Shown: one piece after another, positions 1 through 39,288 of the stretch | Numbering within the stretch: the stretch's first letter is position 1 | Layout: each line of letters opens with the position of its first letter | Source: a virus | Taxonomy: Duplodnaviria; Caudoviricetes | Length of the DNA stretch: 64,000 bases | Strand: one strand, 5' to 3' | IMG/VR virus record: IMGVR_UViG_3300009873_000008 | Coordinates: 8,944 to 72,943 of that record | Position numbers and translations under genes: made by a program | Notes under the pieces: model-generated | What the model was told of the DNA's origin: nothing | The model's database searches: none | Seen by the model: the letters and a program-made list of their open reading frames with translations, nothing else

Positions 1-626
1 TCGGGCTTGTTCGCCTTCTCGGCCTTGGCCGCTCGGCGTGCCTTGTCGGCTTCGACCTTGGCGATCAGTTTCTGAGCCTCCATGTGGGTCTTCATGAGTC
101 CACGCAGGCGTCCGCGTTTGCGGTTTGGCCGGCCTTCGAGGCGCAGATTGTCTGGATGGCAGTTGGTCGGATCCTTGTCTCGGTAGCGCACAAGCATGCC
201 GATCTCGATCGGTCGCTTCTCGATCCACTCGTACACCATGCGTGCTACCAGGCGCGCGCGACGGCGGTCGCAGGGTGCGGTGGCACGCTTGTAGGTCTGG
301 CCTTGCTGCTTGTAGGTCCGATAGCCCAGGGTCGTCTTCCCGAGGTACAGTGGGAGGACAGAAAGTCCCTTCTGACAGATACTTAGACGGTCCCAGCTGC
401 CCATGGCCAGGGCTCTCTGATCGTCGGAGACGACCAGTTCTTTGCCGTTGTCCAGGCGAACCCGGACGCATGGCTTGACCCCAGCCGCGGTCACCATGAC
501 TCGGCCGACCGTGATCTTCTTCCCGTCCCAGGTGAAGCCGTAGATCGGTTCGTTCCGCGCCAGGAGCATCGCGATCGGAACGTCACCGCTGAGCGTGTGG
601 ACTAGCGTCTCGGCGGCGAAGCTCAC
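1..626 (-). CDS. Intein (HINT)-like protein with degenerate HNH region, no N-extein; truncated by window edge
   Basis: Hand translation from GTG 626 (GTGA overlap with the upstream stop): MSFAAETLVHTLSGDVPIAMLL...VRVRLDNGKELVVSDDQ (intein block A/B-like), then RLVARMVYEWIEKRPIEIGMLVRYRDKDPTNCHPDNLRL (HNH-like); open to position 1; absent from the ORF track. Confidence 0.75.
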   Translation of the reverse strand, partial: MSFAAETLVHTLSGDVPIAMLLARNEPIYGFTWDGKKITVGRVMVTAAGVKPCVRVRLDNGKELVVSDDQRALAMGSWDRLSICQKGLSVLPLYLGKTTLGYRTYKQQGQTYKRATAPCDRRRARLVARMVYEWIEKRPIEIGMLVRYRDKDPTNCHPDNLRLEGRPNRKRGRLRGLMKTHMEAQKLIAKVEADKARRAAKAEKANKP

Positions 627-1069
627 ACCGGCCGTTCCCGGACGATCTTGAAGGCAGTGCGGAGACGATCGTTGAAACTCTTGAAACCGCGCAGGAGCCA
701 AGGCAAGAGAACCGTGACCCGATCGCGGACCACTTCGCGCTTCATGCCCGCCGCGAGTGCCTCCTTCACGACCATCTGAGCGAACTCGTCGGCCAGGGCA
801 CGCGTGTAGCGTCGATCCCCGCTCATCAACAGCGAAAAGTCGAACCGCTGCGAGATGTCTCGCAGCAGGTCATCCACCCGCTCTTCTGCCTCATTCGCGG
901 GGTCTGGCGGTCCGGCGAATGGATCACGGCTGGTCGGCGGGACGAAGGCAACGACGCGCTTCATCTGCGGCTTGCGCCGCGCTATGACCTCGACCAACTG
1001 GAGCGGACGTCGTTGCAGCCGCACCGTCACTCCTTGTAGGGACGCCCATCGACTGCGATAGCGCGCCAA
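623..1069 (-). CDS. Hypothetical protein with LQRRPLQLVE motif
   Basis: 148-aa ORF coupled to the downstream gene. Confidence 0.6.
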   Translation of the reverse strand: MARYRSRWASLQGVTVRLQRRPLQLVEVIARRKPQMKRVVAFVPPTSRDPFAGPPDPANEAEERVDDLLRDISQRFDFSLLMSGDRRYTRALADEFAQMVVKEALAAGMKREVVRDRVTVLLPWLLRGFKSFNDRLRTAFKIVRERPV

Positions 1070-1329
1070 CTCTTCGGAATCTGGTGCATGGCGCGCGCAC
1101 GTTGCACGGCCTGTTTCTCCGTCGAAGCGACAACGGAGATGACTCTGGTATCACCGATCGGAATGCGAAAGGCGACGGCCCTCAGCTTCGCGCGCGCCAG
1201 GTACTGAGCGTGGGTCCGCTGTCCAAGGTCGCGCTTGGACATGGTGTCTCGCTCGCCCGGCAACAGCCGTCCGAACCAGGGGTGCTGGTTCTCCAGGGTC
1301 AGCAGTGGACGTCGGCGCAGCCGCAGCAT
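1027..1329 (-). CDS. Hypothetical protein with N-terminal RRPLLTLE motif
   Basis: 100-aa ORF in a minus-strand run. Confidence 0.6.
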   Translation of the reverse strand: MLRLRRRPLLTLENQHPWFGRLLPGERDTMSKRDLGQRTHAQYLARAKLRAVAFRIPIGDTRVISVVASTEKQAVQRARAMHQIPKSWRAIAVDGRPYKE

Positions 1330-1362
1330 TCCCTGAGAATAGCAGGAAGCCGCGGTCTCGCG

Positions 1363-2013
1363 TCACCCCCCAAGATCGGGCCTGGGTAGCCGGTAGGTAT
1401 CCGACCGCTTCTTGTCGGATTGGGGCCGATTCTCGTCTTGCTGCCAGGTTGAGATTGCGTAGCCGAGCGCGACCTCCAGCGTCTCAGGGTCGAGGAACAG
1501 GCAGTCGATGGTTCCGAACCTGATCTCGATGCCGCCCTGCACTCTCATCTGTTCAGCGGGCGGCAAGCGCAGTGGACCCGATCCGGTCAGGAACCACGTA
1601 CCGTTGGTCGAAGAGGCGTCTTGGATCTTCCACAACCCGGGGTTGGCCTTGGATGCCGTCAGGTAGGCGTGGACCTTCGAGACGGTCGGATGGTCGAAAC
1701 GGATGTCGTTGTTCCGGGCGCGCCCGACGGTAATCGAGTCGAACGGGTTCCGTCGACTCTTGACGACCGGCACCAGCACCGACGTGGGCGTCACGTACGA
1801 GTTGAGCGCTTCCTTGCCCAGGACCACCGCCGTCGTATCGAGCACGGCATCGTCTTCCTCGGGCGGCTTCGGTGTCTGAAACATGAACGCCGAATCTTCG
1901 TGTTCGCCCGCGGCCTTGACCAGGAGTAGCGGCGCGTCGCCCCACAACTTTCGCGCGCCGAAGTCCTTGATCGCGGCAACGTCGCGCAACAACATTCCGT
2001 CCGATGGGGCCAT
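1363..2013 (-). CDS. FHA domain protein
   Basis: GRARNND, SKVHA and STNGT FHA motifs; start set at ATG 2013, 6 nt after TAGAGT. Confidence 0.85.
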   Translation of the reverse strand: MAPSDGMLLRDVAAIKDFGARKLWGDAPLLLVKAAGEHEDSAFMFQTPKPPEEDDAVLDTTAVVLGKEALNSYVTPTSVLVPVVKSRRNPFDSITVGRARNNDIRFDHPTVSKVHAYLTASKANPGLWKIQDASSTNGTWFLTGSGPLRLPPAEQMRVQGGIEIRFGTIDCLFLDPETLEVALGYAISTWQQDENRPQSDKKRSDTYRLPRPDLGG

Positions 2014-2019
2014 ATCCAC

Positions 2020-2028
2020 ACTCTACCC
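2020..2028 (-). promoter_or_regulatory. Putative -10 element (GGG-TAGAGT), leaderless
   Basis: Exactly 6 nt upstream of ATG 2013. Confidence 0.55.
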
Positions 2029-2037
2029 GGCGCTCCC

Positions 2038-2385
2038 CTACAACTGCCAAGCGCTCACTCGCCGCTCGCTCCCAGGCTTGAACACCAGATCAATCGTGAA
2101 GTTGGACGCGGCGTCCAGACTCGCAATCGCGCGCACGGGGTCTTTCAACTGCTCTTGGAGTGACGCACGGCACAGGGCCGCCCACACCCGAAACCCTTCA
2201 CGACTCGGCGCGAGGTTCTTGTTGGCCTCGATGCCCGAGAGAAACTGCGCGAACTCGCCGCTCGTCAGCGTCGCTCCGACAATCTTGGATTCGAGCGGCA
2301 CGGTAGTCGGCAGCAAGCCGCCGCCGACTACACATGCCTCGCAGAAGTAGTCCACGTGCTGGGATTCGAGAATGACCCTCCACAT
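2038..2385 (-). CDS. Hypothetical protein
   Basis: 115-aa ORF with a CEAC motif. Confidence 0.5.
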   Translation of the reverse strand: MWRVILESQHVDYFCEACVVGGGLLPTTVPLESKIVGATLTSGEFAQFLSGIEANKNLAPSREGFRVWAALCRASLQEQLKDPVRAIASLDAASNFTIDLVFKPGSERRVSAWQL

Positions 2386-2394
2386 GGCGAGGTT

Positions 2395-2679
2395 CTACCT
2401 GGCGCGAAAGAATGCCCGCCAGTCATCGACCAGTTCGTCGCCGGTACGGCACCAATGCTTCCAACGGGAGCGAGTCGAGACGCCGTGCTGCGTGCGCTCT
2501 CCGTGTTCGTTCCGGCGTTCCCAGACGACTCCGTCGGGGCGCACCTCGATGACGATGCGTCCGAAGACACGATCGCCGACTTGGACCAGGAACGGTTGAC
2601 CGGACCGCCACGAACGAATCCATCGACCGTCGACGAAGCGGGGGAGACGGTGACGCCCGTTGGGGCACGTACATGACAT
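2395..2679 (-). CDS. Hypothetical protein
   Basis: ORF from MSCTCPNGRH; start uncertain. Confidence 0.45.
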   Translation of the reverse strand: MSCTCPNGRHRLPRFVDGRWIRSWRSGQPFLVQVGDRVFGRIVIEVRPDGVVWERRNEHGERTQHGVSTRSRWKHWCRTGDELVDDWRAFFRAR

Positions 2680-2747
2680 GACGACTCCTACTGCGCCCAC
2701 TGGCGCGAAACAAAGTAGGAGTCGTCATGGAGCAGCCGACGTGGCTA

Positions 2748-3053
2748 CTAGATGTATGCCTGGAAGGGCGAGACCTCGGCCGGCACCGAGGCGAGCCGAA
2801 CCGGCTGCCGGTCGCGGACCTTGCCGAAGAGTTGGAAGCGGCGGACCATGTTCGCCACCTGGTCGAGCGGGACACCCGCCGCGGTCGTGATCGTCACCTG
2901 GCTGATGACGCCGTTGGTGTACGTGTAGGCGAGCGTGATGTTCTTCTCCCGACTCGGCAACGGAACCACCGACGAGTCGACGCGGGTCTTGATCTGATCC
3001 ACGGCGTGCTGAGGGACCGACGCGCCGGAGACGTCCAGGACGATGCTGGCCAT
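2748..3053 (-). CDS. Hypothetical protein
   Basis: 101-aa ORF, protein-like composition, GGAGG SD upstream. Confidence 0.6.
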   Translation of the reverse strand: MASIVLDVSGASVPQHAVDQIKTRVDSSVVPLPSREKNITLAYTYTNGVISQVTITTAAGVPLDQVANMVRRFQLFGKVRDRQPVRLASVPAEVSPFQAYI

Positions 3054-3074
3054 AGTGTTCCTCCCACCGTGAGC

Positions 3075-4067
3075 CTACACAACGTCGGCCTGAATCGTCT
3101 CGGACTTCTCGGCCTTCTCGACCACCGCCTTACCCCAGCAACACTCGCCGATCCACCCGCCCTCCGGGGCTTTGTGTGAACCAGCTGCCGGAACGACCTG
3201 TTGGCAACTACCGCAGCGTACGCGTCTCGTTCGCTTGGGCTTGGGCGGGAGCGGCGGAATCGGATGATCGCTCCGACCGCGTCTCGCCTGGTCGATCTCG
3301 TGCTGGAGCTTCTGTGCGGCCAGCACTGCCCGAAGTTGATCGGCCAGGACCCGCGCAGCGGCTACGAAGTCGAGTTCTCCGGCGGAGACGATCGTCTGCT
3401 CGAAGTGCTCGGTCAGCGTACGGGAAGTGAGGAAATAGGTTACCAGGTCCCGGCCTGTGTGCAGCCGACTATCGGGCATGCGACCACTGCGCACTCGCTC
3501 CAACACGGTCGAGATGGCGTGCTCAACCGCGTCGAGAGGAGCCGCACCATTGTTCATCGACGCGAGCAGTTCGATCGCGCACAGGCGCACAGACTCGGAT
3601 CGCATCACCCGCACGTAGCTCGTGCCCCAGTCCCGAGAGAACAGAGTGCGGGCCAGCTTTTCCGACGGCTGCACCGTCGTCTTGTCGAGCGCCGTCGAGA
3701 ACTCACGCACGTGACCGGCGTAGAAGTCGACCTGCTGAGTCACGAACTCGGCCACGATCTGCGCCGGGTCCTTCGTGACGAGCAGACGGCGCGCCTGCTC
3801 GGCCTTGGACTCCTCTTCGAGTTGCTTGAAGAGCGCCTTAGAGATCTTCTTGTGGCCGGTCAGACCGACCACCTCAAACTCCTGCGACCAGCGTTCCGCA
3901 GCCGGACGATTGACGTCGGTCGGTGCGAGCGTGCAGAAGAAGACCGGGTCTTCGATGTAGGAAGCCCACTTCGTCTTGATGCGATCGACGGGAAGCACCG
4001 TCTTGCAGGCGACGAGTTCCCACGTGAGCCCGTGGCGCAGCGCCCAGAACTGCCTTCTTCTCGACAT
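3075..4067 (-). CDS. Hypothetical protein with C-terminal Cys cluster
   Basis: 330 aa; CGSC...ECC near the C-terminus. Confidence 0.7.
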   Translation of the reverse strand: MSRRRQFWALRHGLTWELVACKTVLPVDRIKTKWASYIEDPVFFCTLAPTDVNRPAAERWSQEFEVVGLTGHKKISKALFKQLEEESKAEQARRLLVTKDPAQIVAEFVTQQVDFYAGHVREFSTALDKTTVQPSEKLARTLFSRDWGTSYVRVMRSESVRLCAIELLASMNNGAAPLDAVEHAISTVLERVRSGRMPDSRLHTGRDLVTYFLTSRTLTEHFEQTIVSAGELDFVAAARVLADQLRAVLAAQKLQHEIDQARRGRSDHPIPPLPPKPKRTRRVRCGSCQQVVPAAGSHKAPEGGWIGECCWGKAVVEKAEKSETIQADVV

Positions 4068-4387
4068 CAGATCCTCTCCGCAATCATGTCGTCAGCCTGG
4101 TTCAGTAGCTCGGCCGCTTGGCGCAGACAGTCTCGTAGCTCAGTAGTGAGCCGCGGGCTGTCCGAGAGCGCCCGAGCCCGACTCGCCAGCGCGGCGAGAT
4201 CGCGGGCGAGATGTCCAACCTCGGCTGTGTCGTCCGTGTCGGGGTCCTCGGTCGCGAAGCGCTCGTACATGTTCAGCGCCGCGTGATCCGCGCGTGCGTC
4301 TTGCTGGCACGCGCAGTCGGGGCGCGGAAAGTAACTGCAAAAGCCGCACGCCTGAGCCGCTGCCGCGAGTCGTTGCTCCAGAGTCAT
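4067..4387 (-). CDS. Hypothetical protein (Cys motif plus helical region)
   Basis: ATG 4387 with GAGGAG SD; GGG-TAAGAC at 4401-4409. Confidence 0.6.
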   Translation of the reverse strand: MTLEQRLAAAAQACGFCSYFPRPDCACQQDARADHAALNMYERFATEDPDTDDTAEVGHLARDLAALASRARALSDSPRLTTELRDCLRQAAELLNQADDMIAERI

Positions 4388-4506
4388 AGTCGCTCTCCTC
4401 GTCTTACCCACAGTCGCGGAGCGATCTCTTACGCCGCGCCATCAACTTCGCGGGCTTGACGTCGCGGTGGGTACAAATCTCGTTGGCACAGAAGGTTAAG
4501 AAACTT

Positions 4507-4535
4507 CTGTAAGTCCTCGGCCTTGACCTGTGAGT
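4507..4535 (+). promoter_or_regulatory. Direct-repeat element CTGTAAGT / CTGTGAGT, 21-bp period
   Basis: Same two octamers with the same spacing at 13639-13667; both precede plus-strand operons. Confidence 0.5.
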
Positions 4536-4555
4536 GAGCAGGAAGGACGGACGAC

Positions 4556-4819
4556 ATGAGCAAGAGCAGCGAGACCAAGCGGGTTCGGGCGGCGAGGAAG
4601 AGCATGGACGCGACGCGCGCCGCGCTCGCCGCGCTTGAGGCAGTGCTGGAGAGTCGCCTCAAGGCGGTGAGCGCCGTGTACGGCGCCAAGCTCCACCCGA
4701 AGCATCTGGACTCGGTTCGTGTCCTGCTGGAGGCCGAGCGCGCCGAGGTGACCACCCGGCTGGAGATGGCCACCGAAGAGTACACCAAGCTCCGCGACCT
4801 CTACGGCGACGCCGAGTAG
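4556..4819 (+). CDS. Hypothetical coiled-coil protein
   Basis: 87 aa, strong G/C third-position codon bias. Confidence 0.65.
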   Translation: MSKSSETKRVRAARKSMDATRAALAALEAVLESRLKAVSAVYGAKLHPKHLDSVRVLLEAERAEVTTRLEMATEEYTKLRDLYGDAE

Positions 4820-4865
4820 CAGCCGATTCACCGACCGATCATTCATTCACCCCAACGAAAGGCAA

Positions 4866-5225
4866 ATGACCATGACTGTTCCGCTCGATAAGGTGCTGGC
4901 CGACGCTGTGAATCCCGAGGGGATCACCCCTCTCTCCGCTGGTGCGGTGCTCTGCGCCGAGATCCGGCAGGGCCTCCGGCGCGTGCTCAAGGCGCACGAT
5001 CCCGAGGGCTACGCCGCCTACAAGCGCCTCAAGTACCCCGAGGGGAAGGACGCGGGCAAGTCGACCGAGCACCGGATCGAGGCGACCAAGTTCCTGTTCG
5101 ACCGGGTCCGTGACCTGCTCCTGCCCTACTACATCCCGTTCCCCGCCGTCGCGACGGACGAGGAGCCCGAGGAGGGGGAGCCCGAGCCGCACGACGCCTA
5201 CGACCTCGACTACGACAACGAGTGA
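4866..5225 (+). CDS. Hypothetical protein with acidic tail
   Basis: 119 aa, codon bias. Confidence 0.65.
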   Translation: MTMTVPLDKVLADAVNPEGITPLSAGAVLCAEIRQGLRRVLKAHDPEGYAAYKRLKYPEGKDAGKSTEHRIEATKFLFDRVRDLLLPYYIPFPAVATDEEPEEGEPEPHDAYDLDYDNE

Positions 5226-5271
5226 GGAACAGATGAAGCGCTTTCACGCTCGCGCGCCACCACGAGTGACG

Positions 5272-5280
5272 GGGTAGAAC
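5272..5280 (+). promoter_or_regulatory. Putative -10 element GGG-TAGAAC
   Basis: Recurrent motif; short leader with GGAG before ATG 5302. Confidence 0.5.
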
Positions 5281-5301
5281 CACGGTGGAAAGGCCGGAGA
5301 C

Positions 5302-5787
5302 ATGATCCACCCCAGCGAGACCCCGGTGCCTCTTGGAATCTCTCCCGAACTGGTAGACGTGATCCGCACCGCGGTCGCGACTACCGCGAAGCCGGAGGGC
5401 TGGCGCGACTCCGAGTACGCCATGACGAAGGTGTCGGCCAACGAGGCGCTGCGATCGATCACCGAGGCGGAGGCTGCACACACGCAGCCCCGCCTCACGA
5501 TCTTTCAGTGGGGCGTCCTCAAGGGCGAGATCGCGCGCTACTGGAAGCACAGGCGTGGACCGCCCCGGGACATGGCGTTTGCCGCCTTCACCGCGCTCGA
5601 AGCCGGATTGCGTGCGGCCCCCGAGGCGAAGGAAGCGCTGATCGAACTGGCCGCCGAAGAGGATGCCGCCCGGCGAGTGGTCGAGGCCGAGATGTCCCTC
5701 ACCGTCGCCCAGGAGAACCTGGATCGAGTCCGGCGTGAGCAGGAAGAGCGCCGCCGCTCCACCTCGGAGCGTCATCGGATCTCCTGA
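5302..5787 (+). CDS. Hypothetical protein with C-terminal coiled coil
   Basis: 161 aa, SD and promoter motif. Confidence 0.65.
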   Translation: MIHPSETPVPLGISPELVDVIRTAVATTAKPEGWRDSEYAMTKVSANEALRSITEAEAAHTQPRLTIFQWGVLKGEIARYWKHRRGPPRDMAFAAFTALEAGLRAAPEAKEALIELAAEEDAARRVVEAEMSLTVAQENLDRVRREQEERRRSTSERHRIS

Positions 5788-6117
5788 GTGACACCCGAAG
5801 AGCGCACGCCTGAGTGGATGGCCGATGCCATCATGGTTGTGCTGCGCAAAGAACCCAATCTGACCGAGCGGTTCGGGATCCGCACGTTGGTCCTGGCTCT
5901 CCTCAAGGGCGAGGCGGACATTGAAGAGCGCCCGTGCAGGAAGACCAACGCCTGGGACCGCGACCACCTCTGCGGATTCGGTGGCGCACCTGGGAAAGTC
6001 AGAGTGACGTGCGAGCGCAGCGGCGGACTCCTCTACGACGAGATCCGAGACTGCGAGACGTGCCGGGGCACCGGCACAGAGCGCCGACTCAAGTACCGCT
6101 ACCAGGCGTACGATTGA
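5788..6117 (+). CDS. Hypothetical protein with DnaJ-like CxxCxGxG motif
   Basis: CETCRGTG. Confidence 0.55.
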   Translation: MTPEERTPEWMADAIMVVLRKEPNLTERFGIRTLVLALLKGEADIEERPCRKTNAWDRDHLCGFGGAPGKVRVTCERSGGLLYDEIRDCETCRGTGTERRLKYRYQAYD

Positions 6118-6508
6118 GTTCAGCGATTGAGCCGACCAGGTCGACCACTGGCCACACGATCACGAATCGCGGTGTCTCGTCTCCGTAGTCCCGCACTACA
6201 GCGTGAGCGAGGAGCAAGTTCTCGCGCTCGTTACGGGCTCTCGCCAACGCAATCGCATCGTCGATCGAAGCGAAGCGCGTCGCTTGGTCGAACTCGGTAG
6301 TCGCGATCGAGTCGGCACGACGGAGCGGACCATCGCGAAGAGTCCAGCCGGCGAGCAGACGAACGTCACACTCACTTGAGATCTGCGCGGCCGGATCGAG
6401 GCGACAGACGAAACGATGCGAGAGGGCAAGGCTCAAACGAACCTCCCCTCTCAGCACCTTGTCCCTGGGAATGTGAGGAAAGACGAGCAACAGGAACGGT
6501 CGGCTCAC
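6089..6508 (-). CDS. Hypothetical protein with C-terminal tag VVDLVGSIA
   Basis: 139 aa, overlaps the upstream stop. Confidence 0.55.
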   Translation of the reverse strand: MSRPFLLLVFPHIPRDKVLRGEVRLSLALSHRFVCRLDPAAQISSECDVRLLAGWTLRDGPLRRADSIATTEFDQATRFASIDDAIALARARNERENLLLAHAVVRDYGDETPRFVIVWPVVDLVGSIAELNRTPGSGT

Positions 6509-7008
6509 GACAGCGCGCGACGCACCGCCGAGATCAGCGCAACCACCGACTCCTGGCTCTGCCCGAAGGCAGTGTTGCTGCCCACTGCCGCCGTCACGAT
6601 CGCCGAGATCGCCGAGAGCCGCGCAGCCGACTCAACGCCGTTCGATCCGTCCAGCACGGGGGTCGGCGCCGCGGCCGTTGCGGGTGCGAGCGCGGGACGA
6701 CCGCGACGACCGCCACCGACACGGGGCTCGCGCGCGGGGCGTCTGAGCGCCGCGTTCTTGTCGTCGAGCAGCATCTCGGGCGGATCGCCAGCGATCAGAT
6801 CCTTGATCCGCTGCTGGACCGACAGCATCGCGTTGGCGCGCCCACCTTGCCAGTTGTGCCAGGTGCTGTTGGTCACGCCGAGGAAGTGCGCGAGGCGCTT
6901 CTTCGGGATGCCGTACTTGGCCCGCCACGCGTCCAGGTCACCGAAGGTGACGCCGGTCCACTCCGGCTTCTTCTTGCTCTTGATGCTCAGTCGCTTCTTC
7001 TTGGCCAT
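6505..7008 (-). CDS. XRE-like HTH DNA-binding protein
   Basis: LDAWRAKYGIPKKRLAHFLGVTNSTWHNWQGG; GGG-TAGAAC at 7039-7047. Confidence 0.65.
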   Translation of the reverse strand: MAKKKRLSIKSKKKPEWTGVTFGDLDAWRAKYGIPKKRLAHFLGVTNSTWHNWQGGRANAMLSVQQRIKDLIAGDPPEMLLDDKNAALRRPAREPRVGGGRRGRPALAPATAAAPTPVLDGSNGVESAARLSAISAIVTAAVGSNTAFGQSQESVVALISAVRRALS

Positions 7009-7041
7009 CGGGTCCTCGCTTCCGCGTCCTCACTGCGGGTT

Positions 7042-7524
7042 CTACCCTCGCGCGGATCGAGTCGATGAGCCTTTCCGCTTCTTCTTGTCGAGGGCACCGA
7101 TCGTGTCGACGACAGAGACATTCAGCCAACGGGAGAGAGCGCTGAGTCGAGCGTAGAACGCTTCGTGAGTCGTCGTTGACATGGCCCCCCGAAAGGGCCT
7201 CCGTTGTTCCTGGTTGGCCGCTCGAATGAACTCGACGGCCTCGGCGACTCCGGGCATCCCATCCGCCGGTTCGCGCGAGAAGGTAAGCCTGGCCTCGTCC
7301 CCTCGGGTAGCCACGTTGATGGCTCGACTGATCGTCTTGTGAATCAGTCCAAGCTGCTTGTAGCGCATCAGCACAGCGATCCCCGGCGTAACTGTAAAGC
7401 TGACAGCGATCGGATCGGATTGGATGGCCGCCTTCCGCTTCAAGGTTCCTCCGTAATTGTCCGCTATGTAAGAACTAAGCGAGTCCAGCTGCTCAGGACC
7501 GGTGTCGCTCAAGCCACCGCTCAA
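7042..7524 (-). CDS. Accessory paralog family A protein
   Basis: Shares SDPxxVSFT, RLTFSR and RWLNxxxVxxIGA[LM]DKK with 8197..8559; start uncertain. Confidence 0.6.
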   Translation of the reverse strand: MSGGLSDTGPEQLDSLSSYIADNYGGTLKRKAAIQSDPIAVSFTVTPGIAVLMRYKQLGLIHKTISRAINVATRGDEARLTFSREPADGMPGVAEAVEFIRAANQEQRRPFRGAMSTTTHEAFYARLSALSRWLNVSVVDTIGALDKKKRKGSSTRSARG

Positions 7525-8589: not shown

Positions 8590-9156
8590 GTGAATCCGAC
8601 GCTGATCGAACAGAACGACGAGCCCTGGCTGCTCCTGGGGCTCGATACACGGTTCGAGACCGACGTGAAGCCCACCGGGATGTTCCTTGGCCTCTCGGGC
8701 CGCATCGTCATAGCCGACACCGGTTCGGACCTGATCGCCAGCGTAGCGAGCCTGGACAGCGACCCCGACAAGCTGCTGCGCTTTCCGGTTGTGGTCTCGA
8801 CCTACCGATCCAGACAGGTCGATATGTGGGTGTGCCACATGACTCACGCCCGGCGTCAGCGGTTCGGTGGTGCGTTTGACCTCCTACGGTTCTCGGGCTA
8901 CGACTGGGCTCCGGCGAGCATGGTTCGCGGTGTCGGAGCCGATGCCGCCGAAGCGACGCGCAGCTACATCCGCCAGATCGCCGGCTACAACACCGGTCAG
9001 TCGTGGCAGATCGTCCCGCTGATCGTCGCCGCGGCCGAAGGTGACGGACGTCCCGGGCCCCGCGTCCTCGAACGCGCGCTAGCGTGTTTCCTGAAGACAG
9101 GCCGCGTTACCGACATGACGCGCCGCTATTCCACGAAGTTCACGAGACCGCAGTGA
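8590..9156 (+). CDS. Accessory paralog family B protein
   Basis: LIASVASLD tag followed by FPVVV; QIVPLIV. Confidence 0.6.
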   Translation: MNPTLIEQNDEPWLLLGLDTRFETDVKPTGMFLGLSGRIVIADTGSDLIASVASLDSDPDKLLRFPVVVSTYRSRQVDMWVCHMTHARRQRFGGAFDLLRFSGYDWAPASMVRGVGADAAEATRSYIRQIAGYNTGQSWQIVPLIVAAAEGDGRPGPRVLERALACFLKTGRVTDMTRRYSTKFTRPQ

Positions 9157-34445: not shown

Positions 34446-34581
34446 GCGCCTGCGCCTGCCTGGCGTTCATGTTTCCAGGCAGCGCGTCCGGGCCAGACTG
34501 CGCCGACGGCTCGGCCAGATGGCGAGTCCACCACGGGTTGTTTGGGAAGTGCTCCAACACGATCCGGTCGTAGAGGCTCAC
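34318..34581 (-). CDS. Small protein (MSLYDRIVLE N-terminus)
   Basis: TACAAT 7 nt upstream; overlaps an opposite-strand gene. Confidence 0.35.
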   Translation of the reverse strand: MSLYDRIVLEHFPNNPWWTRHLAEPSAQSGPDALPGNMNARQAQALIGSQWHQRRQSPERAPAKKRRSRGTEPNSPGDWPQQARSQG

Positions 34582-34627
34582 GACCAGAATTGTATCCGAT
34601 GACCATCATCGTTGGTACAACTCACCT

Positions 34628-35026
34628 GTGACCGAGAAAGCACTGGCCTGTGAACGCTGCGGACGACCGATTCCGGTCTTTCCGCTGTGGACCGCCCTCT
34701 CACGAAGGGCGAGACTGTCGTGCTCCGACTGCGGCCACCAGGTGACTCGGGACTACCTGACGGCGCGCGCCGAGATCGACGAGATGGCCAAAGCGATGTT
34801 GGTGGCCTACGGCCAGTTGGTCCAGTTCGGATGGGTCAACTACGACTCGCTGGCCAACGACGGAGTGGTCGGCAATCCGCACTCGATCGGCGGATTGCTC
34901 AGTGGACTCGCGCGCGCTGGGTTGATCCAGCGCGCGGAGCCCGTTACCAAACTGGGTTCACTCGTAGATCCGAAGCCCGTGTTTGTTCCGGGACCGAGGT
35001 TTCCCGCCGCCAAGGCGGCCGGCTAG
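34628..35026 (+). CDS. Zinc-finger protein with possible winged helix
   Basis: CERC...CSDC; TGG-TACAAC 6 nt upstream. Confidence 0.6.
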   Translation: MTEKALACERCGRPIPVFPLWTALSRRARLSCSDCGHQVTRDYLTARAEIDEMAKAMLVAYGQLVQFGWVNYDSLANDGVVGNPHSIGGLLSGLARAGLIQRAEPVTKLGSLVDPKPVFVPGPRFPAAKAAG

Positions 35027-35307
35027 CGGCGCTGGCGGATCCTCTCGAAGGTCTTCTCGCGAACGAAGTCGAGCAACCGATCGTGCTCGTTCAGCGAGAA
35101 GACGTGGATCGTCCTGGAGAGTGGTTCGTTGGGATCCACGTCTTCGGACTTCTTCTCCTCGGAGAAAGCCCGGGAGGGGTCGTAGCCTTTTCCGTCGGAC
35201 TCGTCGGACTCCGGTGCCATCTTCCTGGCGAACAGCGCCTCGACGACGATCCACCCGTTCTCGGCCTCTTCGATCGAGAGGCACCGCTCGTACGTCGTGT
35301 GCATCAA
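35023..35307 (-). CDS. Hypothetical protein
   Basis: LSIEEAENGWIV. Confidence 0.6.
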   Translation of the reverse strand: MMHTTYERCLSIEEAENGWIVVEALFARKMAPESDESDGKGYDPSRAFSEEKKSEDVDPNEPLSRTIHVFSLNEHDRLLDFVREKTFERIRQRR

Positions 35308-35353
35308 CTAAACCTCGGCTGTCGAATGTCCCAGATGGCTGACCTAGACGCGA

Positions 35354-36664
35354 CTACTTCTTGGCTACGATGTCCTGGGCGCCGCGCTTGTAGCTCCACC
35401 TGTCCGGGGACAGGTCGTGGTGCATGGCGATCCCGGGCAGGCACTGCTTGATCGCCTCGCCCATCCACTGTGCGACGGTGCGCAGCGTCGGGTGGACCGT
35501 CTCCCCGGAACGGAGTTCGGCGATGTAGACGGCCGACGGCAGTGAGCAGGCCATCACGACCGGCACCTGGTAGCCCATCGGGATGTAGTACTGCTTGACC
35601 GTCGGGTCAGCCTGGAGCGCTTGGACACGCGCCGTGATCCGAGCGATCTCCGCCTCGGTACCGGACGGCAGGTTCTCCAGGTACCAGCCGTGGAAGCCGC
35701 GGCGGATGGTGAGGAGCGGCATCTCCTGAACGGCCGACCGCTGGCGCTGGATGTCGCGGTAGCTCCCGAAGTCGATGTTGAACTCAAAGTCGATGCTGCC
35801 GAAGCGCCGGAGGCGCTGATGCATCTCCGCCCTGGGCGGCCTGCTTGAGAGCAGATCGTGGAAGGCTCCCAGCGCGTCCACATTCAGCCGGTTCGTGTAG
35901 CGGGCCCCGTCCCACATGGCCGCATAGCCGTCGAAGTAGGCAAAGCGCGCCATGCTGCGCGCGATGTACTCCTCCTCGGCGTCGTAGCGCTTGTGCCCGA
36001 AGCTGGACGGGTAGCGCTGACCAAGAGCATCGTGCAGCGCTTCCGAGATCTCTCGAACCTCGACCAGCGGATGGTGGCGCATTTCCTTGAGGTGGTCGTT
36101 CGTCTGGCGCAGGTTCGTCGACCAGGCGACGAGCGTCGTAGCGCCGGCCGGTAGAAGTGAGCGCGCGATGTCGAACGCGCGCGCCTTGATCGCCTTCTCC
36201 CACTGGCCGGACTTCTCATCCGCACGCTTGGGATACCGCTCGCTCAGCGAATCGACCAGAGCGGCCAGCGACTTGGCGTAGAGCGCCATCCACTCGGCCT
36301 GGATCTCCTCGCCCTCGGCGATCCCAAGCGGGTTCAGGCAGCCCTGCGTGAACATGTCCAGGTAGCGGGTGCTGGCTTCCTGCCCGCAGTAGAGGGGCGT
36401 GTCCTGAATCGCCTTGGCCGCAAGCATCGAGACCTGCTCGACGAACATCGCGATGAAACCGCAGTCGCCGATGCTCTTGTGCCCGTATCCGACATAGAAC
36501 TTCTCGTGGAAGGCCGACGAGCCGGTCTCACGAACCTTCTCCAGGTGCTCGGTCACTGACTTGGGACTGCGTGAGTACATGGCCTGAAGCATGGCCATGT
36601 CCTCGGGACTCGGAACGTCACTTCCGTCCAGTACGACGATCTTTCGTTCGGCGGTCTTGGGCAC
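35354..36664 (-). CDS. thyX: Flavin-dependent thymidylate synthase (two-domain ThyX-like)
   Basis: YGHKSIGDCG, QEASTRY, ARSLLP, DIQRQRS; AGGAGG SD 7 nt before GTG 36664. Confidence 0.85.
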   Translation of the reverse strand: MPKTAERKIVVLDGSDVPSPEDMAMLQAMYSRSPKSVTEHLEKVRETGSSAFHEKFYVGYGHKSIGDCGFIAMFVEQVSMLAAKAIQDTPLYCGQEASTRYLDMFTQGCLNPLGIAEGEEIQAEWMALYAKSLAALVDSLSERYPKRADEKSGQWEKAIKARAFDIARSLLPAGATTLVAWSTNLRQTNDHLKEMRHHPLVEVREISEALHDALGQRYPSSFGHKRYDAEEEYIARSMARFAYFDGYAAMWDGARYTNRLNVDALGAFHDLLSSRPPRAEMHQRLRRFGSIDFEFNIDFGSYRDIQRQRSAVQEMPLLTIRRGFHGWYLENLPSGTEAEIARITARVQALQADPTVKQYYIPMGYQVPVVMACSLPSAVYIAELRSGETVHPTLRTVAQWMGEAIKQCLPGIAMHHDLSPDRWSYKRGAQDIVAKK

Positions 36665-37646
36665 GCGCTTGCCTCCTGAATCGAGCAACGACTGTTCGCC
36701 AGGACTGTTCATACCAGTCGGCGCCGACATCAAGAGCCTGGCCGCGGTGAATTACAAGTAGCCGAAACGAGACCCCTTGAGCTATGACAGCACGAGCTTT
36801 AGCACACACTTGGGCAAAGATGGTGCGGTCGTAGATTCCAAGCGTAACTGCGCTTTTCACTTCGACGACCTGACCGCGAGACTTGACGAAGGCGTCGGGA
36901 ACGTAGGTCCGATTGGTTCGTCCCGCGAAGGCGTAGCGGAACGTCGGACGACCTTCGACGGCCGTGAATGCAAGATCGTTCGGAGCGATGCCTTCCGAGA
37001 GCATGATCTCGACGGCCCGTCCCTCCGATCCTTGAACCATCACCGTCCGCGTTCCGACTCGGATCGGACGTCTCCGGTACTGCGATCGGTCGCACAGCGG
37101 ACAGCCATAGCCCGAGAGCAGCTGGTTCGGCGACGTCTGCCAAACGTGGCCTTTTGAGCATCGATGTCGGATCGAAGTCAGCGCAGTCTCGTAGCGATCA
37201 AGCACGACCACCCCGAGAGCAAACGCCTCGGCCGCGTACGTCTCGTGTGTCTTCCGACGCCTCGGTCTCGCTTGGTAGCACTGACGGCAGCCAGCGCTGC
37301 GATGCACCACGTTCGCTGGCTTGGCAAAGAACGACCCGTGAGTCGGACACAGGTATTCGAGCTTCTTGTGAGAGCCGCAGTAGGCCCCAACGACTCGCAA
37401 CCGATCGCCGTGAATCCGGCGAACCATCGCAACGTGGTCGTCGTGTTTGGTGCGCTGTCGATCCCACGCACACTTCGCACACCCGTGACCGGACTCAACG
37501 TTGGACGGAAGAGCGCTGAACCGGCCGTGCGTGGCGCACTTGTAGACAACTCGCCGAAGGGCGTGTCGATAAGTGCCAACCACCGTCAGCGCTCCGGCGT
37601 GTTTTCGCGTGACCCGACGAACGTGCTCCTCGTGTGTTTTGGCCAC
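36618..37646 (-). mobile_element. Free-standing homing endonuclease: three Cys/His zinc-ribbon repeats plus PD-(D/E)XK domain
   Basis: Repeats C-x2-[HK]G...G-x-[AG]-C-x2-C; YVPDAF...VVEVKS. Confidence 0.8.
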
Positions 37647-37684
37647 GCTTATCAGCGTAGCCAGAGCTACTATCCTTTGCCAGC

Positions 37685-37858
37685 CTAGCCGGTGTAGTAC
37701 TGGTCCATGAACTTGCCGGAGCCGACGCTTCGCACCCTCTCCAGATGGTCGTCCACGGACTGCGGACTGCGCGAGTAGAGCGCCTGGAGCATCGCCAGGT
37801 CTTCGGGGTTGGGCACGTCATGCCCGTCGAGCACTCGGATCTTGCGTGGCTTTGGCAT
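37685..37858 (-). pseudogene. Truncated 5' duplicate of thyX (57 aa)
   Basis: MPKPRKIRVLDGHDVPNPEDLAMLQALYSRSPQ...YYTG*; 38 of 57 residues identical to the intact ThyX N-terminus by hand alignment. Confidence 0.9.
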
Positions 37859-37901
37859 TCACTCTCTCCGCTTCTAGAAATCAGTCACAGGATGAGCACG
37901 G

Positions 37902-38840
37902 TCATGCAGGCGGCTTGGTCCTGCCTCGCTTGAGCGGCGCGGAGTGGGCGACACCCCCACGGTCGAAGTACCGCACCGGAAGCGGACTCATGGTATCGAC
38001 GTCGATGACCAGATCATTGGGGTCGGGCCACGCGCTGTGATCGTCGCTCATGCGATTGAGGATCGGGTATCTCCGTCCGTTGATGAGCGCCACAACACGA
38101 CGGGTGCGGAACTCGTCCGTGTGCAGCCGCGGACCAAGCGTGCGCTCCAATAGATCGTGGACGCACACTCCGAGTAGCCGCGAGAGCAGCGAGGCTCGCA
38201 CGTGGGCGTTTCCAGACCAGTCGCCGATTCGTCGATAGTATCGACCGACGGTCAGCCCATCGCCTTCGAGATGCCCGATCTTGCTAATCAGATCGGGCGG
38301 AATCGGCTCTGAGCGCTGCTCGACCTGTCGAAAGCTGGCGCCAGATCGAGTGACCGTCAATACGATCCTCTGCGAGCCATCGACGTTGTAGTAGTGAGGG
38401 TGGTTCGTGCGAGCGACCCGGTCAACCGCGTCTTGATACTTGCGCCGCACGAACTCCAGGTGGGAATAGCAGTGCCATCTGAGTTGCTCGATCGACCGAA
38501 CGTCCAACTTGTCGCGTCTGATGAGCAAGCCGTGCGCGTTTCGACGTTCCTCGGTAAAGAACGCGTACCACCGACCGACGGGCCGGCTCCACGAGTAGAT
38601 CAGACCATCGTCGCCCAGCGTCTGGCCACGCTTCAACGGCCCACCGGTGGAGAGCGCATAGGCACCGGGACGACCGGATAGGCCGGGAAAATCGGAAGCG
38701 CGGTAGCCGATGGGCGTCAGGCCGCGGGCAACGGGAAAGATCGGTACCCGCTGGGCGATCTCACAGAGAGTCTGATACCTCGGCTCCGGCTTCTCCGATT
38801 CCTCGATCCTCGTCCTGCTCTGGACCTGCGCTAGTCTCAC
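37902..38840 (-). CDS. Hypothetical protein
   Basis: GGG-TAGAAC 6 nt before GTG 38840; LISKIGHLE. Confidence 0.6.
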   Translation of the reverse strand: MRLAQVQSRTRIEESEKPEPRYQTLCEIAQRVPIFPVARGLTPIGYRASDFPGLSGRPGAYALSTGGPLKRGQTLGDDGLIYSWSRPVGRWYAFFTEERRNAHGLLIRRDKLDVRSIEQLRWHCYSHLEFVRRKYQDAVDRVARTNHPHYYNVDGSQRIVLTVTRSGASFRQVEQRSEPIPPDLISKIGHLEGDGLTVGRYYRRIGDWSGNAHVRASLLSRLLGVCVHDLLERTLGPRLHTDEFRTRRVVALINGRRYPILNRMSDDHSAWPDPNDLVIDVDTMSPLPVRYFDRGGVAHSAPLKRGRTKPPA

Positions 38841-39288
38841 CATCCGGTTCTACCCGACCAAGCAGACCCAAGAGATCCACCGGCGGCTGTCTCATCCGAC
38901 CTACTCGCTCGAAACCGTCTGGGGCGTTTGGATACACCAACCGGAATTGCCGGCAGAGGATCAGTCCGGTGATCTCGATTCGATCCGGTCCGACGATCTC
39001 GTGGAACAGCGCGAGTGCCTCCAGCAGGTTGTGGCACGATCCGTAGGGATGTTCGTCAGCGAGGTGATCGGCCACCTCTTCCAGATAGAAAGCGATGTCG
39101 TCTTGTCGGCGAGCGTCCGCGATGACGGGCAGATGCTCGCGCAGCGAAATGCAAAGTGGCTCGATAACCGGTCTGAGATCCCAGGACGCATTGACGGCCG
39201 CCGTGAGCATCCGCCGCCACGCGATGCACGTCTCCCAGTCAGGTTGATCGCCCTGCCTGGGCGCGTCGCGTCGATTGCCCCGCATCAT
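38761..39288 (-). CDS. Hypothetical protein
   Basis: 175 aa. Confidence 0.5.
   Translation of the reverse strand: MMRGNRRDAPRQGDQPDWETCIAWRRMLTAAVNASWDLRPVIEPLCISLREHLPVIADARRQDDIAFYLEEVADHLADEHPYGSCHNLLEALALFHEIVGPDRIEITGLILCRQFRLVYPNAPDGFERVGRMRQPPVDLLGLLGRVEPDGETSAGPEQDEDRGIGEAGAEVSDSL

Follow-up and report, generated by a model that had tools for sequence, protein, structure and literature searches.

A probable free-standing endonuclease cassette carrying a replacement 5' end for the thyX gene of a phage

The thyX locus described here lies in a 64,000-nucleotide (nt) stretch of viral DNA (Duplodnaviria; Caudoviricetes), referred to below as the window, which corresponds to positions 8,944 to 72,943 of the IMG/VR virus record IMGVR_UViG_3300009873_000008. 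As the record is 72.9 kb long and its completeness is put at ~26% by CheckV, the phage is probably of jumbo size. On the minus strand of the window, a fragment of the 5' end of thyX is followed by a 41-nt spacer (counting the TAG that ends the fragment), the gene for a predicted endonuclease and a complete thyX gene (Table 1). A reading made earlier from the DNA letters, called here the sequence-only reading, had described this order and had placed the AGGAGG Shine-Dalgarno sequence of the complete thyX inside the 3' end of the nuclease gene, and both were confirmed. The arrangement was probably produced by a free-standing homing endonuclease cassette that brought with it a ribosome-binding site (RBS), a start codon and the first 59 codons for thyX, and that was inserted between Gly59 and Tyr60 of the gene it entered.

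Table 1. Features of the thyX locus in window coordinates (ORF, open reading frame; aa, amino acids; GC3, G+C content of third codon positions; P0002 and P0006 are ThyX homologues introduced in the text)
Feature	Coordinates	Strand	Remarks
Putative displaced native thyX 5' end	37685..37858	-	Intact 57-codon ORF (57 aa) from ATG at 37858 to GGC at 37688; stop TAG (37687-37685) apparently supplied by the inserted element; GGAGAG upstream; 89% identical to the P0002 N-terminus; GC3 86%
Putative left end of inserted element	37647..37687	-	TAG GCTGGC and spacer up to the nuclease start; without a Shine-Dalgarno site
Predicted free-standing homing-type endonuclease, 342 aa	36618..37646	-	GTG at 37646, stop codon 36620-36618; three CapR/DUF723/treble-clef zinc-finger repeats and a C-terminal PD-(D/E)xK domain (DUF7487); GC3 65%
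Shine-Dalgarno sequence AGGAGG of resident thyX	36672..36677	-	Within the nuclease ORF, read there as Arg-Arg; kept in L004 and L005
Putative cassette-borne replacement thyX 5' end, codons 1-59, foreign lineage	36488..36664	-	Start codon GTG at 36664; 81-84% identical to P0006 and 68% to P0002; GC3 75%
Putative native thyX body, codons 60-436 and stop	35354..36487	-	Starts with the conserved YGHKSIGDCG block; stop codon 35356-35354 ends the 436-aa ORF; sister to P0002; Pfam Thy1; GC3 89%

The complete thyX, referred to as the resident gene, was taken to start at the GTG listed in Table 1, and a listed 459-aa ORF starting from a TTG at 36733 was rejected as an over-extension of it. The start of the resident gene and the 3' end of the nuclease gene share 47 nt. 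At the break, the fragment reads ...TAC TAC ACC GGC TAG and the resident gene ...TTC TAT GTC GGA TAC GGG CAC AAG; the protein encoded by the fragment ends in ...KFMDQYYTG, at the Gly directly before the YGHKSIGD block of thyX. The sequence-only reading had presented the fragment as free of internal lesions, broken at GGC TA|G and ~67% identical to the resident copy, which proved correct, as no lesion was found and the identity is 66.7% over 159 codon-aligned nt. In the proteins, 35 of 53 aa are identical (E = 4e-24). Only 47% of third codon positions agree, hence the two 5' copies diverged anciently and did not arise by a recent local duplication.

The resident 436-aa ORF is predicted to encode a ThyX-family protein, as it matches Pfam Thy1 (PF02511) with E = 1e-15 and 58.2 bits, against a gathering cut-off of 24.8. 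The search gave about 3,900 homologues of this long form (~430 aa), and many carry the name FAD-dependent thymidylate synthase. Canonical ThyX proteins carry a RHRxxS signature, and at the corresponding position the long-form family (window 35357-36664, minus strand) reads RDIQRQRS. The long form is common to jumbo-phage contigs and many metagenome-assembled genomes of Patescibacteria.

The gene between the two thyX sequences encodes a protein whose C-terminal third matches DUF7487 in Pfam and whose first two thirds match CapR, DUF723 and DUF4379, the last a treble-clef zinc finger; it also matches the PHROG endonuclease families 681 and 559. In an AlphaFold (AF2) model with a mean pLDDT (predicted local distance difference test score) of 89, three zinc-finger repeats are followed by an alpha/beta domain at the C-terminus. 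Residues 190-330 of the model, when compared with known structures (VIA-align), matched TnsA with Z 7.6 and a root mean square deviation of 2.7 over 106 aa, and further neighbours of the domain were Vsr (Z 7.0), I-Bth0305I (5.5), I-Ssp6803I (4.0) and Hjc; these Z values are moderate, and the list of matches is dominated by restriction-endonuclease-like folds. Foldseek with the whole model gave weak matches, and a sequence search of the PDB with the nuclease profile gave chance matches only, with no significant similarity to I-Ssp6803I or I-Bth0305I. Residues E208, P250-D251, E262 and K264 are invariant among 17 aligned homologues, and stand in the window nuclease in the contexts YVPDAF and VVEVKS. 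As this invariant motif is combined with restriction-endonuclease-like structural neighbours, the protein is assigned to the PD-(D/E)xK nucleases, the modelled domain having the alpha-beta-beta-beta-alpha-beta core. The N-terminal sequence MKTHEEH is kept across the family.

The resident thyX was compared with 120 listed homologues, in which P0002, P0006, P0062, P0030 and others are protein representatives. P0002 (75% identity overall) is the closest uninterrupted homologue among the matches listed. The sequence-only reading had held that the fragment should match uninterrupted alleles better than the resident copy does, and the comparison with the P0002 N-terminus bears this out, with 89% identity (51/57) for the fragment versus 68% for the resident N-terminus. 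The resident N-terminus itself has its highest identity, 81-84% (the range over two alignments), to P0006, P0013 and P0016. Over the 60 residues that follow the junction, the identity is 92% to P0002 and 70% to P0006.

Phylogenetic trees gave the same division. In a maximum-likelihood tree of thyX downstream of the junction, the window gene is sister to P0002 with a Shimodaira-Hasegawa-like approximate likelihood ratio (SH-aLRT) support of 100, and P0006, P0013, P0016 and P0030 form a separate, distant clade (support 100). In the tree of the N-terminal piece, P0002 and the fragment form a group (support 95) that excludes the resident N-terminus. Informative sites in triplets were then submitted to a Fisher test, with the breakpoint fixed beforehand at the fragment end. 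Upstream of it, 4 sites are P0002-like and 11 P0006-like, versus 87 and 24 downstream, and the switch of lineage was significant with each of three second parents (p = 1.2e-4 for P0006, and 3.7e-5 and 9e-4 for the two others, with P0013 and P0016 giving results similar to P0006). The last P0006-like site is V58 and an unbroken P0002-like run begins at F70, an interval that brackets G59|Y60. GC3 is high in the fragment and the thyX body and lower in the nuclease gene and the resident 5' end (Table 1). The lineage switch, the placement in the trees and GC3 together indicate that the resident thyX is chimeric, with its break at the fragment end. Judged from these comparisons, the fragment and codons 60-436 appear to be the two halves of the original gene of this phage, with the nuclease gene and codons 1-59 having come from elsewhere.

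Comparable switches were found in other pairs of homologues. P0080 and P0062 have 94% identity over the body of the protein and 67% over the N-terminus (p = 4e-8), and for P0006 and P0030 the values are 87% and 74%, respectively (p = 8e-4). As the bodies of P0080 and P0062 differ by only 6%, the N-terminal replacement in this pair would be evolutionarily recent. P0048 and P0069, with 86% identity downstream of the junction and 70% upstream, may represent a further N-terminal swap.

The nuclease and its duplication were also found at other loci. At the DNA level, nothing in 50,697 phage records matched the 3.9-kb region, and protein searches of the same records returned only distant relatives (~32% identity for thyX and ~28% for the nuclease). 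Such distant relatives of the nuclease occur in hundreds of phages and often at several places per record, a distribution typical of homing endonucleases; the record of the window carries one copy. A scan of 185,579 prokaryote genomes with the nuclease alignment found no loci, and no sign of the cassette was seen in these cellular genomes; a metagenome scan with the same alignment gave five loci only. Scanning IMG/VR with the thyX alignment gave 19 loci, a single-protein scan of viral contigs having given none.

Two of the IMG/VR loci, L004 and L005 (thyX identity 60% and 58%), have the fragment, a nuclease gene whose product is 65-66% identical to that of the window and a complete thyX, with the AGGAGG and start of thyX again inside the 3' end of the nuclease gene. 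L058, on a metagenome contig, has the fragment and the nuclease gene, after which the contig ends. Over these three further fragment-bearing contigs, nuclease identity to that of the window is 52-66%, and thyX comes next in the two that reach that far. The duplication was not seen apart from the nuclease, since a thyX fragment was found in 0 of 17 nuclease-free viral thyX loci, and an outcome that the sequence-only reading had named as one that would tell against it was therefore not observed. With respect to presence and absence at one site, a mark of homing endonucleases, four distinct loci carry the nuclease and thyX 5' sequence at one junction versus the 17 viral thyX loci that lack both. 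A second mark, co-conversion of flanking host sequence, is seen in the V58-F70 switch and in its equivalents in P0080/P0062 and P0006/P0030.

The sequence directly after the fragment is TAG GCTGGC in the window and in L004, TAA GCTGGT in L005 and TAG GCTTGC in L058, and this TAG/TAA GCTGGC-type sequence is the putative left end of the inserted element and source of the stop codon. The fragment is intact in the window and in L004, has an internal deletion in L005 and has lost its last three codons in L058. Among 5.8 billion proteins, four more short relatives of the fragment were found, of which P0148 ends exactly at ...YYVG, P0149 passes YYVG and continues for five unrelated residues before its stop, and in P0152 and P0154 the divergence sets in one to two residues sooner. 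At least seven fragments thus break at the same junction or a few residues from it.

The overlap between the nuclease gene and the start of thyX is likewise widespread. Among 17 close nuclease homologues that were aligned, 13 end in a tail of the RR..AQDRR type (RR..RAQDRR in the window), as do P0155 and P0156, giving at least 15 of 19. Since the tail RR..(H/R)AQDRR is what AGGAGG followed by ATG CCC AAG ATC GTC GT encodes in the nuclease frame, where thyX starts MPKIVV..., it represents an out-of-frame thyX start and the overlap is family-wide. The comparisons therefore support a predicted homing cassette of the PD-(D/E)xK/zinc-finger type, specific for thyX and replacing its 5' end, that is present in several independent contigs.

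The proposal of the sequence-only reading, that an element consisting of a nuclease and a replacement thyX start had left the 5' part of the recipient gene behind as the fragment, is supported by these findings, and the following course of events can be envisaged. The cassette comprises a stop codon and short spacer, the gene for the PD-(D/E)xK/zinc-finger nuclease, and the replacement RBS, start codon and 59 codons of thyX, and it sits where the highly conserved YGHKSIGD coding block begins. The nuclease would cleave uninterrupted thyX alleles near GGC|TAC, and repair would copy the cassette from a donor, in which the fragment and upstream DNA would provide the left homology and the thyX body the right. 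As the donor would have thyX homology on both sides, precise homing would be possible into any thyX, whatever lies upstream. The incoming 5' end would be fused in frame to recipient codons 60-436, giving a full-length chimeric thyX that requires neither RNA nor protein splicing, and the first 57 codons of the recipient would be displaced upstream and remain as a short ORF. The left half-site reads AAG TTC ATG Gnn nnn TAC TAC GTC GGC in native alleles and fragments versus TTC CAC GAG nnG TTY TAT/TAC RTS GGN in the four cassette-borne copies, and this consistent difference suggests that the cassette-borne half-site may protect the resident copy from cutting.

The fragment ORF may also serve the nuclease gene. 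No Shine-Dalgarno sequence precedes the nuclease gene in the four fragment-bearing loci, whereas GGGAGG precedes it in L056, a locus with no fragment, suggesting translational coupling to the fragment ORF, from which the nuclease gene may borrow a promoter and an RBS. Translation of the nuclease by this route is speculation. A consensus promoter scan found no promoter-like sites, and terminator-like sites were about as many as in shuffled sequence (three, against a mean of 1.6). In the spacer (37640-37662, minus strand), GGCUACGC can pair with GCGUGGCC, which would place the GUG start of the nuclease in a stem. The fold of this hairpin does not differ significantly from shuffles (z = -1.5) and is not obviously conserved in L004; such a stem could limit translation of the nuclease.

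Several observations weigh against a cassette that homes with its own thyX 5' end. The nearest nuclease homologue is 68% identical, and a recent donor was therefore not among the sequences sampled. The second parent P0006 was picked after inspection of the data, and approximately unbiased (AU) tests on the 54-column N-terminal alignment had no power, the quick search having missed better trees. P0002, P0062 and P0030 are known as proteins only, and the comparison of empty with filled sites is accordingly at the protein level. The putative same-contig pairs of a thyX protein or fragment with a nuclease, P0148/P0131 (longest contig 14,136 nt for both), P0080/P0134, P0015/P0124 and P0011/P0129, were joined only because the longest contigs of the two partners are equally long. 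Over six nuclease/thyX pairs, nuclease identity follows that of the thyX body (rho 0.72-0.82) and not that of the 54-residue N-part (rho 0.18), and the co-variation of nuclease and N-terminus that would be expected is absent. As nuclease divergence follows the thyX body, much of the family history has been vertical, or homing has been mainly among kin. Finally, L056 has the nuclease and thyX with no fragment.

Some of these points would suit a one-off repair scar, in which a nuclease gene lying in the intergenic DNA upstream was joined illegitimately inside thyX with no left homology, the fragment being inert and vertically inherited, and nuclease and 5' end never having moved together. The nuclease gene of L056 is indeed directly upstream of thyX and has its own Shine-Dalgarno sequence, and in L055 (Ga0334722_10006615, 3504-6007) the gene for a 430-aa homologue, 51-54% identical (two alignments) and longer by one repeat at the N-terminus, shares an ATGA with the start of the gene for another Thy1-family protein, of 404 aa (RHG..SQRS, which looks canonical). 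Upstream of these two nuclease genes, no decayed fragment came to light in a sensitive search, the weak match in L055 being to the nuclease's own N-terminus, KTHEEHVRRV. As these two loci show, the nuclease family exists also as an ordinary upstream free-standing gene, a layout that may be ancestral or may be the state after loss of the fragment, and the nuclease lineage seems to be tied to thyX even across thyX subfamilies. Vertical descent of nuclease with thyX body and the decay of the fragment in L005 and L058 would also fit a scar. However, a single event does not account for a junction at or near ...YYVG, with the TAG GCTGGC left end where the DNA is known, beside fragments of different lineages (the window/P0002, L004 and P0149/P0152/L058 types), nor for three contrasts between sister pairs, P0080/P0062 among them, in which the N-terminus was replaced after recent divergence. 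Had the fragment been a neutral leftover, dating back as far as the 60-65% divergence of the nucleases, it would also be unlikely to survive as an intact, conserved ORF, third positions being saturated between the two copies. A repair scar is therefore considered improbable.

The position of the break at a conserved motif, which is a usual site for introns and inteins, would instead suit a split or spliced gene (group I or group II intron, trans-splicing or intein), with the fragment as its 5' exon and the nuclease gene as the ORF of an intron or intein. However, a permissive Rfam search of 34500-39000 on both strands, across 4.5 kb, gave no match at E <= 1. A group I/II intron was rejected, as no ribozyme core was found, and the non-coding room amounts to the 41 nt before the nuclease gene and nothing between it and thyX. 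An intein was rejected because an in-frame insertion with Hint blocks is lacking (no Hint/intein domain in Pfam), the fragment is closed by a stop codon, and a separate start, in MKTHEEH, is present for the nuclease. A gene in pieces of the Aeh1 nrdA type was rejected as well, since the thyX after the nuclease gene is full-length and its first 59 codons make the fragment redundant. With a complete in-frame thyX that has its own Shine-Dalgarno sequence and start, and a 5' end that is kept in all of the cassettes, splicing is not needed. The intron and intein readings are therefore very unlikely, and the earlier statement that the gene is restored without either is consistent with the absence of an Rfam match and a Hint domain, the short spacer and the 47-nt overlap. 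Equally hard to credit is a relic of a second, tandem thyX paralogue that lost its 3' part, with a nuclease gene that merely landed between the copies, since, despite the ancient divergence of the two 5' ends (47% at third positions), fragment and resident body share their closest relative (P0002) as halves of one gene would, thyX is single in each of the 17 nuclease-free loci, and random deletion would not end at least seven fragments at or near the same junction.

Replacement of the thyX 5' end by a mobile nuclease cassette thus remains the favoured interpretation, and a broader version of it can be put forward tentatively, although it is rather doubtful as a whole. It would consist of a dedicated, thyX-specific cassette lineage in jumbo phages, spreading by a route that would be the fourth, after introns, inteins and gene splitting, with a start of thyX that resists cleavage and a fragment kept as both left homology arm and leader ORF, and mirrored at 3' ends of genes by the same nuclease superfamily in L032 and L037.

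In L037 (IMGVR_UViG_3300035557_000168, 505-4427), the gene for a distant DUF7487 nuclease (2952-4232) follows a gene for an 801-aa ATPase, whose LSGAE and LDEP motifs suggest an SMC/Rad50-like protein. Immediately beyond the stop codon of the nuclease gene, a diverged but intact copy of the last 65 residues of the ATPase, from LDEP on, is encoded (4233-4421; 54% identity, E = 2e-19), which is a 3'-end-replacing layout of the fungal type in a phage. In L032 (IMGVR_UViG_3300014833_000003, 3060-7501), a DUF7487 nuclease gene on the opposite strand lies directly after the 3' end of a gene for a family A DNA polymerase. Beyond it, a 69-aa ORF (3111-3317, minus strand) repeats residues 947-1007 of the polymerase (43% identity, E = 9e-16), a duplication of a gene end.

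If gene-end replacement of this kind is general, it would explain the short orphan N- or C-terminal gene fragments that lie beside phage nuclease genes, and chimeric genes would arise that mislead phylogenies built from a single gene. The most conserved codons of a gene would also be open to a nuclease that has no splicing machinery, and for a poorly known family of PD-(D/E)xK and zinc-finger nucleases, target sites would be available in naturally paired sensitive and resistant versions.

According to reviews of mobile DNA in phages (PMC2988022), a homing endonuclease may persist in or next to an essential gene by means of an intron or intein, as an intergenic free-standing gene or by gene splitting, and no description of gene-end replacement by a nuclease cassette in phages was found in the open-access literature. 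Free-standing, intronless homing is known for the T4-type enzymes SegB, SegF, SegG and MobE (PMC2988022, PMC2330249, PMC2790892). As in those systems, a stand-alone nuclease gene lies beside a conserved target, is present or absent among relatives and is accompanied by co-conversion of the flanks that leaves mosaic genes. However, genes of the SegB/SegF/SegG/MobE type are intergenic or split their target into two working polypeptides (Aeh1 nrdA), the enzymes are of the GIY-YIG or HNH type, and no replacement gene end has been described for them. CapR/DUF723 repeats are DNA-binding modules of homing endonucleases of ICP1-like and other phages (PMC10448857). The window nuclease resembles the ICP1-type enzymes in its N-terminal CapR/DUF723 zinc-finger repeats and in its position at a boundary of genetic exchange, but those enzymes have a T5orf172 (GIY-YIG-like) domain where a predicted DUF7487 PD-(D/E)xK domain is found here, and no gene-end duplication has been described for them. 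I-Ssp6803I and I-Bth0305I share the restriction-endonuclease-like catalytic fold (Z 4.0 and 5.5, respectively), but are intron-encoded and have DNA-binding architectures unlike that of the window nuclease.

The closest parallel is with the mobile ORFs (mORFs) of fungal mitochondria, which carry a foreign 3' end for the gene they enter, as in atp6 of Allomyces macrogynus and atp6, atp9, cox2 and nad3 of Glomus; the native 3' end is left downstream and is closer to the alleles of relatives than the inserted end is (PMC3630166). The window locus differs in its phage host and in a predicted nuclease that combines PD-(D/E)xK and CapR-type zinc-finger domains in place of LAGLIDADG or GIY-YIG; it works like an mORF without being a member of those nuclease families. 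It is also a mirror image, as the 5' end is replaced and an RBS and a start codon are therefore brought in as well, and it differs further in the 47-nt overlap of nuclease gene and thyX start. What is shared is an endonuclease ORF in a conserved gene with no intron, a foreign gene end fused in frame, and a displaced native end that is closer to relatives (here 89% versus 68%). The likeness to gene-end-replacing endonucleases of fungal mitochondria (PMC3630166) drawn in the sequence-only reading is therefore apt, with the replacement in this case acting at the 5' end.

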